In this document: positions 7,346-8,928 of the stretch, one piece after another
Layout: every line of letters starts with the position of its first letter
Position numbering within the stretch: the first letter of the stretch is position 1
Sequence record: PV018828
DNA length: 64,000 nt
Origin: Escherichia phage YW01
Direction: 5' to 3' (one strand)
The notes under the pieces: model-generated
Database searches by the model: none
The model's input: the letters and a program-made list of their open reading frames with translations, nothing else
What the model was told of the DNA's origin: nothing
Translations under genes and position numbers: made by a program

Positions 7346-8404
7346 ATGGCTAATCCAACTTTATTTGTATCGTATGACCAGAATGGTAAAAAACTTTCTT
7401 TTGCTAACTGGATTTCTGTTCTGTCCCCTCAGGATACCCCGTTCGTATCTATGACCGGTAAAGAGTCTATCAACCAGACTATCTTTAGCTGGCAGACCGA
7501 TGCACTGGCAAGCGTTGACGGTAATAACGCACACGTCGAAGGCTCTCGTGCTGAAGACGGTGAAATGAAACCGACTGTTATCAAATCTAACGTTACTCAG
7601 ATTCTGCGTAAGGTTGTTCGTGTTTCTGATACTGCTAACACCACCGCTAACTACGGTCGTGGTCGTGAACTGATGTATCAGCTGGAGAAGAAAGGTAAAG
7701 AGATCAAGCGTGACCTCGAGAAAATCCTTCTGTCCGGTCAGGCTCGTACCGACGTTCTGGCTGACCAGTATCTGACTAACTCTGCAACTGATCCTGCTGT
7801 TGTTGGTCTGAATGACACCCATGCAGCTCGTAAGACTGGTGCATTCCAGTTCCTGTGTGCTCACGGTGGTCTGGCTGGTGGCGTTGTTGACAAGACCAAG
7901 AATGGTCCTGCTGACCCGGACACTGGTGCAGTAACTGTTAAAGTTGCACAGAATGCTTCTAACCCGACCACTAACATTGGTTTCGACGAAGCTGATATCT
8001 TTGATATGACTCTGCAACTGTATACCGCTGGTTCTGAAGCAGATATCATCATGATTAACCCGGCTCATGCTAAGATCTTTGCTGGTCTGCAAGAAAATAC
8101 TCAGGGTTCACGTAAGCGTATCTTTGAGAACACCAAGCAGTTCATCTACGAAGTTAACAGCATCACTGACCCGCTGGGCCAGAGCTACAAAATCATCGTT
8201 AACCGTTGGATGCCTACCGATGCAGTTTACTTCTTCCGTAGCGCTGACTGGACTCAGATGGTTCTGCGTGCTCCGAAACGTACTGAACTGGCTAAAGACG
8301 GTTCTTACGAGAAGTGGATGATTGAAATGGAAGTTGGTCTGCGTCACCGCAACCCGTATGCTTCCGGCGTTCTGTTCACTGCTGCGGGAAAGGTGGCGGC
8401 GTAA
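7346..8404 (+). CDS. Major capsid protein (352 aa)
   Basis: Size and position after portal and scaffold; strong SD AGGAG; followed by an Ig-like ORF in the -1 frame and a strong terminator. Confidence 0.7.
   Translation: MANPTLFVSYDQNGKKLSFANWISVLSPQDTPFVSMTGKESINQTIFSWQTDALASVDGNNAHVEGSRAEDGEMKPTVIKSNVTQILRKVVRVSDTANTTANYGRGRELMYQLEKKGKEIKRDLEKILLSGQARTDVLADQYLTNSATDPAVVGLNDTHAARKTGAFQFLCAHGGLAGGVVDKTKNGPADPDTGAVTVKVAQNASNPTTNIGFDEADIFDMTLQLYTAGSEADIIMINPAHAKIFAGLQENTQGSRKRIFENTKQFIYEVNSITDPLGQSYKIIVNRWMPTDAVYFFRSADWTQMVLRAPKRTELAKDGSYEKWMIEMEVGLRHRNPYASGVLFTAAGKVAA
8386..8392 (+). other. Candidate -1 programmed frameshift heptamer G GGA AAG near the capsid gene end
   Basis: X XXY YYZ heptamer in the capsid zero frame; the -1 frame is open from 8326 through the Ig-like ORF to 8928; no SD before the GTG at 8416. 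Confidence 0.45.
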
Positions 8405-8415
8405 CAGTAGACAGT

Positions 8416-8928
8416 GTGACTGTTAGCCCTGCGTCTTTAGCAAGTCTAGAGACAGGGGCTACTCGGCAGTTCACTGCAAGCGCGGAGAAAAGTGATGGTT
8501 CTACCGAAACAACTGGCTTTACTTGGTCAGTGACAGGAGGTGGTTCTATCACTCAGTCTGGTTTGTATACTGCTCCGAGTGCGTCTCAATCCACTGATGT
8601 ATCCATTACTGCAACTTTAGAAGGTGTTTCTGGTACAGCAACCATTTCTGAAATTGTTGCTCCTGCTCCTACTATTGTAGCTAAGGGTCCAATTACGGGT
8701 AAAACTGGTGGTTCTTCCACTAATTTCACTACCATGTTTACTGTAACTAACTCTGCTGCTGCGGATTACACGTTTGTTGTAACTCCTACAGAAGCCGGTA
8801 CAGTAAGCGCCGCTGGTGCGTTAACCTTAGATGCTGCTGCAAGTGGCGAAGTTACTGTTCAAGCAAGTTTGACAGCTGACCCATCCATCAATGCAACATG
8901 CACTTTTACTGGTGTAACACCTGCTTAA
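8416..8928 (+). CDS. Ig-like (Big_2-type) domain ORF, probably expressed as a C-terminal extension of the major capsid protein
   Basis: T/S/G/A-rich beta-sandwich-like sequence; ORF is -1 relative to the capsid gene, nominal start is GTG with no SD. Confidence 0.5.
   Translation: MTVSPASLASLETGATRQFTASAEKSDGSTETTGFTWSVTGGGSITQSGLYTAPSASQSTDVSITATLEGVSGTATISEIVAPAPTIVAKGPITGKTGGSSTNFTTMFTVTNSAAADYTFVVTPTEAGTVSAAGALTLDAAASGEVTVQASLTADPSINATCTFTGVTPA

Follow-up and report, generated by a model that had tools for sequence, protein, structure and literature searches.

The window, a stretch of 64,000 nucleotides from Escherichia phage YW01 (sequence record PV018828), comes from a Kuravirus, i.e. 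a phiEco32-like phage that infects E. coli. Its nucleotide identity to the Kuravirus matches is 98–99.9%, the closest for positions 7346–8928 being SkaterBoy_Bas90 (99.9%). Portal, small ORF, scaffold, capsid, adaptor and fibre genes follow one another as in the records of SU10 and of the phiEco32 type. Pfam recognises the capsid protein as SU10_MCP (PF17236, E = 9e-77) and the adaptor as SU10_adaptor (E = 5e-29), so that the module is that of a Kuravirus or phiEco32-like phage. The capsid protein is 100% identical in SkaterBoy_Bas90 and in phiEco32. An Ig-like ORF follows the capsid gene in the -1 frame, and we found neither promoter nor terminator between the two; the intrinsic terminator comes directly after the Ig-like ORF, and is annotated at the equivalent place in the records of SU10, Paul and Privateer. 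The features of the locus are collected in Table 1.

Table 1. Features at the end of the capsid gene of phage YW01 (positions in the window).
Feature	Position	Strand	Remarks
Shine-Dalgarno GGAG of the major capsid gene	7332..7335	+	anti-SD duplex -6.5 kcal/mol; 9-nt spacing to ATG 7346
Major capsid protein gene, zero frame	7346..8404	+	352 aa, 38.7 kDa; short, abundant form
-1 frame open 5' of the shift point	8326..8391	+	overlaps the capsid gene; no ATG, GTG or TTG within; probably not translated
Slippery heptamer G_GGA_AAG, proposed -1 shift site	8386..8392	+	in capsid-frame phase; X_XXY_YYZ type
-1 frame extension	8392..8928	+	178 codons + stop
G-rich spacer	8393..8401	+	9 nt; VAA in zero frame, Gly linker (GGG) in -1 frame
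Ig-like domain 1 (Big_2)	8401..8655	+	residues ~4-88 of the extension; Pfam match from 8407; strands at 6-85, pLDDT > 95
Zero-frame stop TAA, short capsid form	8402..8404	+	
Hairpin H1 (UAACAGU / ACUGUUA, 10-nt loop), candidate stimulator	8402..8425	+	RNAalifold consensus; 9 nt 3' of the heptamer
Nominal GTG start, used in most GenBank annotations	8416..8418	+	encodes extension residue 9; probably not an initiation codon
Hairpin H2, 15-bp interrupted stem	8424..8461	+	-19.9 kcal/mol, z = -4.1; 31 nt 3' of the heptamer
Ig-like domain 2	8668..8925	+	residues ~93-178 of the extension; strands at 94-176 (AlphaFold2)
Intrinsic terminator directly 3' of the extension	8933..8966	+	10-bp stem, then T-run

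In the zero frame the capsid protein ends with ...TAAGKVAA*, and the two codons for G and K belong to a heptamer of the slippery type. The sequence-only reading had placed this heptamer correctly, at 10 nt from the capsid stop; the spacing is in fact 9 nt, a trivial difference. GGGAAAG as such is unremarkable in the window (7 occurrences for 7.5 expected), so that its significance rests on context and conservation. As to the context, ORFs of 100 aa or more contain 55 in-frame XXXYYYZ heptamers, and a long continuation in the -1 frame is found at one only of them: 178 codons at G_GGA_AAG, against 34 for the second longest. This frame is closed by TGA at 8323–8325 and, as had been noticed from the letters alone, open from 8326, up to its stop at 8926–8928. 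A -1 slip on the heptamer gives the junction ...TAAGK-GGGVTVDSVTVSPA..., exactly the one proposed earlier, and a predicted long form of 527 aa and 55.6 kDa made of capsid residues 1–349 and the extension. It is identical to that of phiEco32 at 523 of 527 residues (4 differ). The tryptic peptide GGGVTVDSVTVSPASLASLETGATR begins at the shift point, and its production requires translation of the -1 frame upstream of GTG 8416.

Codon usage changes abruptly at the slip site. The capsid gene is strongly biased, CTG accounting for 19 of its 23 Leu codons; the extension is unbiased, with CTG for none of 7, and its GC3 is 0.26 versus 0.46 in the capsid gene. Such a drop of the bias at this very place is consistent with a low-level translation of the extension.

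The Ig-like nature attributed to this ORF is well founded, although not as the single domain then assumed: the extension comprises two of them. The first matches Pfam Big_2 (PF02368) at a borderline score (24.1 bits for a cut-off of 22.8). The second has no Pfam match, though it shows the same fold as the first in the AlphaFold2 model, where the extension forms two beta-sandwich domains (mean pLDDT 96.7). The best PDB match of the two-domain model, as found by Foldseek, is LigA of Leptospira with its Ig-like (Big) domains in tandem (E = 1e-10). A search with the extension alone returned gene-caller fragments of 110–305 aa and no capsid fusion among the matches. Gene callers do not report a frameshifted product as one protein; in-frame fusions surfaced through the search with the capsid protein. 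The public gene-caller products begin at differing internal Met residues and have the domain cut short.

We consider, with a probability of about 0.9, that the capsid protein is extended by the Ig-like domains through a programmed -1 frameshift at G_GGA_AAG. The minor long capsid form proposed by the sequence-only reading is thus retained: it agrees with the conservation of the heptamer, the lack of any conserved start and the published relatives. Both the mechanism and its occurrence in the phiEco32-like group are already published and not new; what the present analysis adds is a conserved hairpin at 8424–8461 with one covarying pair, and the break of codon usage at the shift site. The GGGAAAG frameshift and the long capsid form have been described for YF01 and the wider group (PMC9965538), and the GenBank record of Paul contains a joined CDS with a note citing PMID 18294652. 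The heptamer is given as the place of slippage for SU10, Privateer, YF01 and Paul alike. For Privateer, two bands in SDS-PAGE and a detection by mass spectrometry were reported (PMC7881722). For SU10, PMC4281155 gives GGGAAAG together with two products seen in mass spectrometry, of 38.5 and 55.4 kDa, “as in phiEco32”. On the frameshift itself this mass spectrometry is weak: the peptides matched a fused database entry, and no junction peptide is reported in the available part of the paper. The long form of phiEco32 comes at second hand, through citations in PMC4281155, in PMC7881722 and in the Paul record. According to this literature the long form is present in virions of close relatives; for YW01 it is predicted from the sequence.

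The gp11 and gp11-12 products of phiEco32, from the same genus, differ in nothing of substance from those of the window, and the phiEco32 DNA is the same at every base of 8340–8500. The other Kuravirus-like capsids (SU10 CDS9+10, YF01 gp8, Paul gp009/gp010) share the heptamer, its position before the stop, the Gly linker, the Ig-like extension and the placement of the terminator. Paul and YF01 have much longer extensions (545 aa in Paul), the long isoforms reaching 894 aa in Paul and 892 aa in YF01 (PMC9965538). In the Proteus phage Privateer (Grimontviridae) the capsid protein, of the same family, is 57% identical. GGGAAAG is found again, the -1 frame also encodes Ig-like domains, and a terminator follows them. 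On the other hand, its heptamer abuts the stop (0-nt spacer), a predicted hairpin starts 6 nt past the heptamer, and the extension is composed of I-set and Big_2 instead of two Big_2-like domains.

We examined the conservation in 16 phages of two lineages, the Kuravirus-like genera and Privateervirus. G_GGA_AAG in the capsid phase, 0–15 nt before the stop, is present in all of them (16/16). The heptamer is kept while its surroundings vary: the spacer, which is indel-prone and measures 9, 12 or 15 nt in alignments of relatives, the zero-frame tail, the length of the extension (169–545 aa) and the type of the appended domain. The peptide following the heptamer is conserved in the Kuravirus-like phages, with a Gly-rich linker and then VTV[DE][ST][VI]TVSP. 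The open -1 stretch 5' of the heptamer differs in length among relatives. Privateer is the clearest example: there the stretch is reduced to zero, the heptamer being the very point from which the -1 frame is open. A stop of this frame is found at the heptamer, or just 5' of it, in Privateer and vB_CsaP_009. The -1 coding signal starts at the heptamer, and the substitutions in the 90 nt from 8401 agree with this frame.

Could the Ig-like ORF be a separate gene, starting from GTG 8416 through a weak initiation de novo or through reinitiation after the capsid stop, and giving a free 170-aa protein that would decorate the capsid in a detachable way? No ATG, GTG or TTG precedes GTG 8416 in the -1 frame, this codon is near the capsid stop, and most GenBank records, including that of the best match SkaterBoy_Bas90, have a separate “Ig domain containing protein”. 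The structural paper on SU10 also assumes a separate gene and considers that gp10 may be a minor capsid protein of low affinity (PMC9509320). However, as already seen in the sequence-only reading, this nominal start has no Shine-Dalgarno: the best anti-SD duplex in the 20 nt upstream is of -1.7 kcal/mol, compared to -6.5 to -11.4 kcal/mol for five neighbouring genes. A SD-like AAGGUGG over the 3' end of the heptamer was rejected, being not conserved (AAGUUGG in Bas92) and 19 nt away from the GTG. Moreover relatives have GTA or ATA at the position of the GTG. Counted from the shift point, the first -1-frame start is at +24, +99, -78, -144 or +180 nt according to the phage, and none is conserved; in the relatives without the GTG it is 99 or 180 nt past the shift point, or upstream of it. 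The protein leads to the same view: in the AlphaFold2 model the GTG falls inside the predicted strand A (residues 6–12) of domain 1, the residues upstream of it are conserved and part of this strand, and the varied internal Met starts chosen by gene callers cut the domain. A ribosome-binding site of its own with a start giving a complete domain, as for a free decoration protein of the Hoc or epsilon15 gp10 type, was not found here. Finally, Privateer, Paul and YF01 each have a joined product in a publication or an annotation, and for phiEco32 such a product is cited. GTG 8416 is probably not an initiation codon, and we regard the separate gene as improbable. Since this GTG is only 11 nt after the capsid stop, a little termination-reinitiation could nevertheless occur there as a side route to the frameshift. 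For the annotation, this means that the “Ig domain containing protein” starting at GTG 8416 is probably no gene of its own but the 3' portion of a capsid CDS that has to be joined, with products of 352 and 527 aa.

SU10 deserves a separate comment. Its deposited sequence carries a 1-nt insertion, by which the -1 frame ends after 11 residues; it is the exception among the 16 phages, the frame being intact in the 15 others, of which some have gained extra domains. No Ig density was seen on the SU10 capsid by cryo-EM (PMC9509320), and the SU10 gel is without a long band according to PMC9965538. As the deposited sequence is broken in the frame concerned, these negative observations are not a fair test of the frameshift. 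SU10 with this insertion still makes plaques and normal capsids, which suggests that growth in the laboratory does not require the long form, and which might favour another explanation: the extension would be a decaying remnant, with a heptamer and an open frame kept by descent and no functional long form, as seems to hold for the sequenced SU10 stock. Several observations argue against it. The frame of 178 codons is intact in the window, as in the 15 phages mentioned, some with added domains; the extension folds in the model with a pLDDT of 96.7; and its variation gathers at third codon positions, the 90 nt from 8401 having 8, 7 and 21 variable columns at the first, second and third codon positions of the -1 frame, respectively, in the alignment of relatives. 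We therefore hold a remnant for very improbable.

A slip at the RNA level would lead to the same protein: RNA polymerase, slipping on the GGG or AAA runs, would leave some mRNAs one base shorter. Nothing specific speaks in favour of it. The homopolymer runs are of just 3 nt, and the known cases of transcriptional slippage in bacteria require about 8 or more A or T. Besides, the conserved unit is a phased X_XXY_YYZ, characteristic of tandem tRNA slippage (PMC5009743). This explanation appears the least credible of all, close to negligible.

In the programmed frameshift that we prefer, the capsid gene and the Ig-like ORF would form a single translational unit, on one late transcript ending at 8933–8966. 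The majority of ribosomes would reach the TAA at 8402 and deliver the 352-aa capsid protein. A minority would slip at 8386–8392 with the tRNAs of GGA (Gly) and AAG (Lys) in the P and A sites, both re-pairing one base back, onto GGG and AAA. From 8392 these ribosomes would read the -1 frame, i.e. the Gly linker and the two Ig-like domains, until the stop at 8926. The HK97-type body of the 527-aa form would then co-assemble in the prolate shell, with both Ig-like domains displayed outside. The rate of slipping may be of a few percent, given about 3.5% for lambda and about 10% for the capsid frameshifts of T3 and T7 (PMC9965538).

We searched for RNA structures that could stimulate the slip. In the consensus of RNAalifold two hairpins in tandem, H1 and H2, follow the heptamer. 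H1 is weak (-3.8 to -4.5 kcal/mol, z = -0.6) and 6 of its 7 pairs never vary; it is a candidate stimulator by its position only. H2 is conserved and its pair 8436:8450 covaries, being U-A, G-C or A-U according to the relative; in this pair a synonymous third position of a Ser codon is paired with the second position of a variable codon. H1 being weak and H2 31 nt off, there is no strong stimulatory structure at the usual 5–9 nt from the heptamer, and a stimulatory role of H1 and H2 is putative. A SD-like motif was not seen by eye, unscored, in the 20 nt 5' of the heptamer. With Rfam, the region 8200–9050 at E up to 1 gave two sub-threshold sRNA-like matches over the terminator, and nothing else. 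An element of this kind is not strictly required, as the frameshift of lambda G/GT is not known to need a stimulator.

The tandem of H1 and H2 was adopted in place of the minimum free energy fold of the single sequence, whose outer helix (8412–8416 / 8472–8476) is not conserved in the NJ01-type and Paul-type relatives upon inspection of the alignment. Another stem-loop, CUGCUGC / GYGGCGG with the heptamer in its loop, was proposed in the SU10 paper (PMC4281155). We did not retain it as a stimulator, because a ribosome on the site would melt its stem, and because the segment of 91 nt is no stabler than shuffled sequences (z = +0.6). With the pattern TTCACYGCTGCGGGAAAG, 116 loci were matched in metagenomes and 5 in IMG/VR, and H2 showed no further variants there. 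About 100 of the metagenome matches are due to chance; genuine Kuravirus contexts amount to 15, including the 5 IMG/VR contigs.

Outside this capsid family, the heptamer itself can be compared with that of the tail assembly chaperone G/GT of phage lambda, which uses an identical G_GGA_AAG in E. coli. It serves as a baseline for the heptamer; the gene is that of a tail chaperone and its product an assembly factor outside the virion. For the capsid, gene 10A/10B of T7 and gene 10 of T3, both podoviruses, show a -1 shift shortly before the major capsid gene ends, leading to a minor form extended at the C-terminus; here the resemblance is in mechanism only. The full heptamer of T7, G_GUU_UUC, is unlike that of the window, and a terminator comes just after gene 10 of T7, as in the window. 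The T7 shift, whose site includes G_GU, involves a long-range element in the terminator; the extension is Ig-like in T3 and not in T7 (PMC5009743).

With the long form, the prolate head would bear a few Ig-like domains in tandem. Domains of this type have been supposed in other phages to confer a weak adherence to glycans of the cell surface or mucus, and a weak binding of surface carbohydrates is likely to be their role here. Kuraviruses are in use against pathogenic E. coli (PMC9965538), and their host range and their behaviour in therapy may be affected by such a binding.

Some phages carry Ig-type domains on their capsid protein without any frameshift. In two relatives, Salmonella phage 7-11 and ECO319P1, a second capsid paralogue has Big_2 matches fused in frame. 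In 7-11 the ratio of the forms is set by the two paralogous capsid genes, which are 74% identical and have a terminator between them. The extension of 7-11 comes after the same conserved ...YASG[IV]L motif, there ...YASGIL; it is not closely related to the extension of the window (E = 0.03). In phi29 the gp8 protein has a C-terminal BIG2 domain, in frame. The second capsid gene of 7-11 and gp8 of phi29 thus share with the window a Big_2-type C-terminus on the prolate head of a podovirus.

We also propose a wider picture, as a speculation that we would not favour at present: H2, stacked on the weak H1, might be an unusually distant tuner of frameshift efficiency, or of how stable the mRNA is where the capsid gene ends, and SU10-type capsid proteins might repeatedly gain a minor Ig-bearing form at their C-terminus by different routes. 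The routes at this evolutionary hot-spot would be G_GGA_AAG in the window; in Aeromonas phages such as LAh_9, a non-canonical candidate, G_GUA_AAG; in one IMG/VR contig, A_AAA_AAG followed by a Pro-rich, not demonstrably Ig-like extension of 42 aa; and duplicated capsid genes with in-frame domains.

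Near its end the capsid gene (7346-8404) reads ...GCT GCG GGA AAG GTG GCG GCG TAA, and a -1 slip on the heptamer G_GGA_AAG is, at a probability that we place near 0.9, how the Ig-bearing product is mainly made. The sequence-only reading had proposed this fusion, and the geometry it described is recovered: the heptamer is present in the capsid zero frame, the -1 frame is open from 8326, and translation through the slip gives exactly the proposed junction, ...TAAGK-GGGVTVDSVTVSPA.... The heptamer does lie close before the capsid stop, although the gap is 9 nt and not the 10 nt first counted. 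The predicted short form (352 aa, 38.7 kDa) and long form (527 aa, 55.6 kDa) agree with the SU10 forms tabulated at 38.5 and 55.4 kDa.

The significance of GGGAAAG comes from its context, the motif alone not being significant: it is not over-represented in the 64 kb (7 found on both strands, 7.5 expected). However, of the 55 XXXYYYZ heptamers lying in frame within ORFs of 100 aa or more, no other is followed by a long -1 frame (178 codons here, 34 in the runner-up), and no other reads at least 30 codons beyond the zero-frame stop. Elsewhere, an ORF of 157 aa (1593-2066) holds A_AAG_GGG in frame at 2039-2045, 18 nt ahead of its stop, and the -1 run there, 34 codons, continues for 83 nt beyond that stop; this probably reflects chance.

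Coordinates of the shift site, of its surroundings and of capsid loci in related phages
Feature	Sequence	Position	Strand	Remark
Slippery heptamer G_GGA_AAG	window	8386-8392	+	in phase with capsid frame
Capsid stop TAA	window	8402-8404	+	read from sequence
TGA closing the -1 frame	window	8323-8325	+	frame then open until stop 8926-8928
Hairpin H1 (predicted)	window	8402-8408 with 8419-8425	+	9-nt spacer, 10-nt loop, canonical distance
Hairpin H2 (predicted)	window	8424-8461	+	-19.9 kcal/mol, z = -4.1; conserved, inside Ig-domain coding sequence
Intrinsic terminator	window	8933-8956 + T-run	+	clean, 3' of extension
Capsid genes	Salmonella phage 7-11 (L019)	1982-2920 and 3001-4758		
Capsid genes	ECO319P1 (L020)	2992-3930 and 4011-5096		
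Capsid genes	APT65 (L022)			four copies
Capsid genes	L013 (IMG/VR contig, 125 kb)			four copies
Candidate A_AAA_AAG	L013	4421-4427		
Candidate G_GUA_AAG	L011	4412-4418		
Candidate G_GUA_AAG	Aeromonas phage LAh_9 (L021)	3912-3918		

The region 7346-8928 is 99.9% identical to Escherichia phage SkaterBoy_Bas90 and 98-99% to phiEco32, SU10 and many further Kuraviruses; the 8340-8500 cassette is completely identical to that of phiEco32, and the long forms differ at 4 of 527 residues. The capsid protein (352 aa) matches Pfam SU10_MCP (E = 9e-77), the gene 3' of the extension matches SU10_adaptor, and the order portal, small ORF, scaffold, capsid, extension ORF, adaptor, fibre is the same in annotated relatives.

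In a comparison of capsid loci taken from IMG/VR and from phages in GenBank, every one of the 16 Kuravirus-like and Privateervirus phages examined had G_GGA_AAG in phase, with 0-15 nt between it and the stop of the capsid gene. Around it the spacer (GTGGCGGCG, GCAGTGGCGGCG, GCGGGAGCG, TTGGATCC etc.), the zero-frame tail (VAA, AVAA, AGA, VEAA, LDPQQ), the extension length (169-545 aa) and the type of appended domain (Big_2 in the window, I-set plus Big_2 in Privateer) all vary. In Kuravirus-like phages the peptide following the heptamer is conserved, a Gly-rich linker and then VTV[DE][ST][VI]TVSP. Over the 90 nt from 8401, variable columns number 8, 7 and 21 at -1-frame codon positions 1, 2 and 3, and this third-position excess indicates that the stretch is translated in the -1 frame. 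In Privateer this frame opens exactly at the heptamer.

The Ig-like ORF might instead be a gene of its own, begun at GTG 8416, the first ATG, GTG or TTG of the -1 frame. The corresponding first start, at +24 nt in the window, lies at +99, -78, -144 or +180 nt in other phages, the codon matching the GTG is GTA or ATA in many relatives, and no -1-frame start is conserved across the compared phages. As was remarked from the sequence, no SD precedes this ORF: the anti-SD duplex in the 20 nt upstream reaches only -1.7 kcal/mol, against -6.5 to -11.4 for five neighbouring structural genes. No promoter-like or terminator-like site was found between the capsid gene and the extension, and the terminator 3' of the extension has annotated counterparts at this position in SU10, Paul and Privateer. 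Independent initiation is thus unlikely, and the proposed fusion by frameshifting is upheld by the conserved heptamer and the want of both a conserved start and an SD. In most database records (e.g. PQ850626, NC_010324, NC_027395), those of phiEco32 and SU10 in RefSeq among them, the ORF (8416-8928 in the window) is annotated as a gene of its own, starting at the GTG in some and further downstream in others (8535 in SU10, 8816 in KBNP1711); gene callers on public assemblies begin it at varied internal Met residues and cut the first domain. A joined ribosomal-slippage CDS is present only in Paul and Privateer among the records inspected. Correcting the common two-gene annotation is one part of the residual value of this analysis.

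The Ig-like nature of the extension was borne out. Its Pfam Big_2 match is borderline (24.1 bits, cut-off 22.8) and begins at 8407, upstream of the GTG; an AlphaFold2 model from 22 sequences (mean pLDDT 96.7) displays two beta-sandwich domains, residues ~4-88 and ~93-178, with VAPAP between. Among PDB entries it matches best the tandem Ig-like (Big) domains of Leptospira LigA (E = 1e-10), with further hits to invasin, to S-layer proteins and to the Ig-like domains of the SU10 nozzle. In this model strand A spans residues 6-12, and GTG 8416 encodes residue 9.

Codon usage shifts abruptly at the shift site (7346-8401 versus 8392-8925): CTG makes 19 of 23 Leu codons in the capsid gene and 0 of 7 in the extension, Thr codons go from 29 ACT/ACC with no ACA/ACG to 24 ACT/ACC, 10 ACA and 2 ACG, and GC3 falls from 0.46 to 0.26. 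In this the extension is like the portal, scaffold, adaptor and fibre genes, whose GC3 is 0.31-0.34. This switch would fit a heavily translated capsid body with a rarely translated tail. Lambda G/GT uses this heptamer, G_GGA_AAG, as well. Slip rates are quoted as ~3.5% for lambda and ~10% for T3 and T7 (PMC9965538), and the SU10 head has 715 capsid subunits (PMC9509320), so that a slip of a few percent would yield tens of long copies per head.

The capsid frameshift is already known for the genus Kuravirus. The SU10 genome paper gives GGGAAAG and a CDS9-CDS10 fusion "as in phage phiEco32", and identified two forms of the capsid protein by mass spectrometry (PMC4281155); for Privateer, two bands and mass-spectrometry detection are reported, in a paper that also records the product of frameshifting as observed in phiEco32 and SU10 (PMC7881722). 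In the YF01 paper the site is described for the Kuravirus-like group as a whole (PMC9965538), the Paul GenBank record joins the CDS and annotates it "Frameshift at GGGAAAG" with reference to PMID 18294652, and frameshifting is reviewed as a frequent way of adding phage Ig-like domains (PMC5009743).

On the other hand, SU10 cryo-EM revealed no Ig density (PMC9509320), and its gel no long band, as far as the summary in PMC9965538 goes. The latter paper noted the SU10 -1 frame as interrupted, which the deposited sequence confirms: SU10 (KM044272) at ~4066-4082, corresponding to window ~8411-8420, has GACACTGTCTACTG where the window has GACAGTGTGACTG, a net 1-nt insertion by which the -1 frame is cut off 11 residues past the shift, in agreement with PMC9965538. 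It probably explains the missing density; as it breaks the frame, the SU10 negatives are not applicable to intact-frame phages. The insertion is at odds with the 2014 SU10 paper, which claimed a form of 55.4 kDa, and may stem from an error in sequencing or from a mutation in the laboratory; the SU10 case suggests that under laboratory conditions the phage can do without the long form.

RNAalifold, given 12 sequences (11 distinct), predicted two adjacent hairpins 3' of the heptamer. H1 is a weak hairpin (-3.8 to -4.5 kcal/mol, z = -0.6); all of its pairs are invariant, so that the alignment speaks neither for nor against it. In H2, pair 8436:8450 is U-A, G-C or A-U across relatives and 8437:8449 is U-G or G-C, 8436 being a synonymous Ser third position and 8450 the second position of an E/P/Q/L codon. 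The covariation score is 0.107 against a shuffle mean of 0.045, a value reached by none of 500 shuffles, but sliding the 3' partners by -1 gave 0.111. This covariation is suggestive only, because its support rests on four haplotypes, and H2, beginning 31 nt 3' of the heptamer, lies beyond the range of a conventional stimulator. The conserved hairpin is a further part of the residual value. Privateer-type phages and the IMG/VR clade L008 have a predicted hairpin from 6 nt after their sites, GC-rich in L008. Reading the sequence 5' of the heptamer disclosed no SD-like stimulator, and an Rfam scan around the cassette no family match.

Residual value lies also in the variety of routes to a long capsid form among relatives. 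Salmonella phage 7-11 has two capsid genes, 74% identical and separated by a terminator, the second carrying an in-frame extension with Big_2 matches straight after the conserved ...YASGIL. Tandem paralogues with one longer copy occur in three more loci (ECO319P1, APT65, L013); the longer copy has a weak Big_2 match, below the Pfam cut-off, in ECO319P1, and no Pfam match besides the capsid domain in APT65 and L013. With 7-11 and ECO319P1, at least two relatives thus pair a short capsid form with an Ig-bearing long one, and in their sequences gene duplication appears in place of frameshifting. In the loci L008-L010 (site at 4412-4418) and L011 and in Aeromonas phage LAh_9 the capsid end, CTG AAG GTA AAG SCN TAA, is devoid of XXXYYYZ motifs; the -1 frame is nevertheless open there, and immediately past this point it encodes two Big_2 domains in L008-L010 and an I-set domain in L011 and LAh_9, its first start lying 48 nt beyond. 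G_GUA_AAG is therein a candidate non-canonical shift site, sharing its G_GU P-site with T7 gene 10. Finally, in one L013 capsid paralogue the classic heptamer A_AAA_AAG, another candidate shift site, stands 3 nt ahead of the stop; its -1 extension is only 42 residues long, Pro- and Lys-rich, and without Ig domain.
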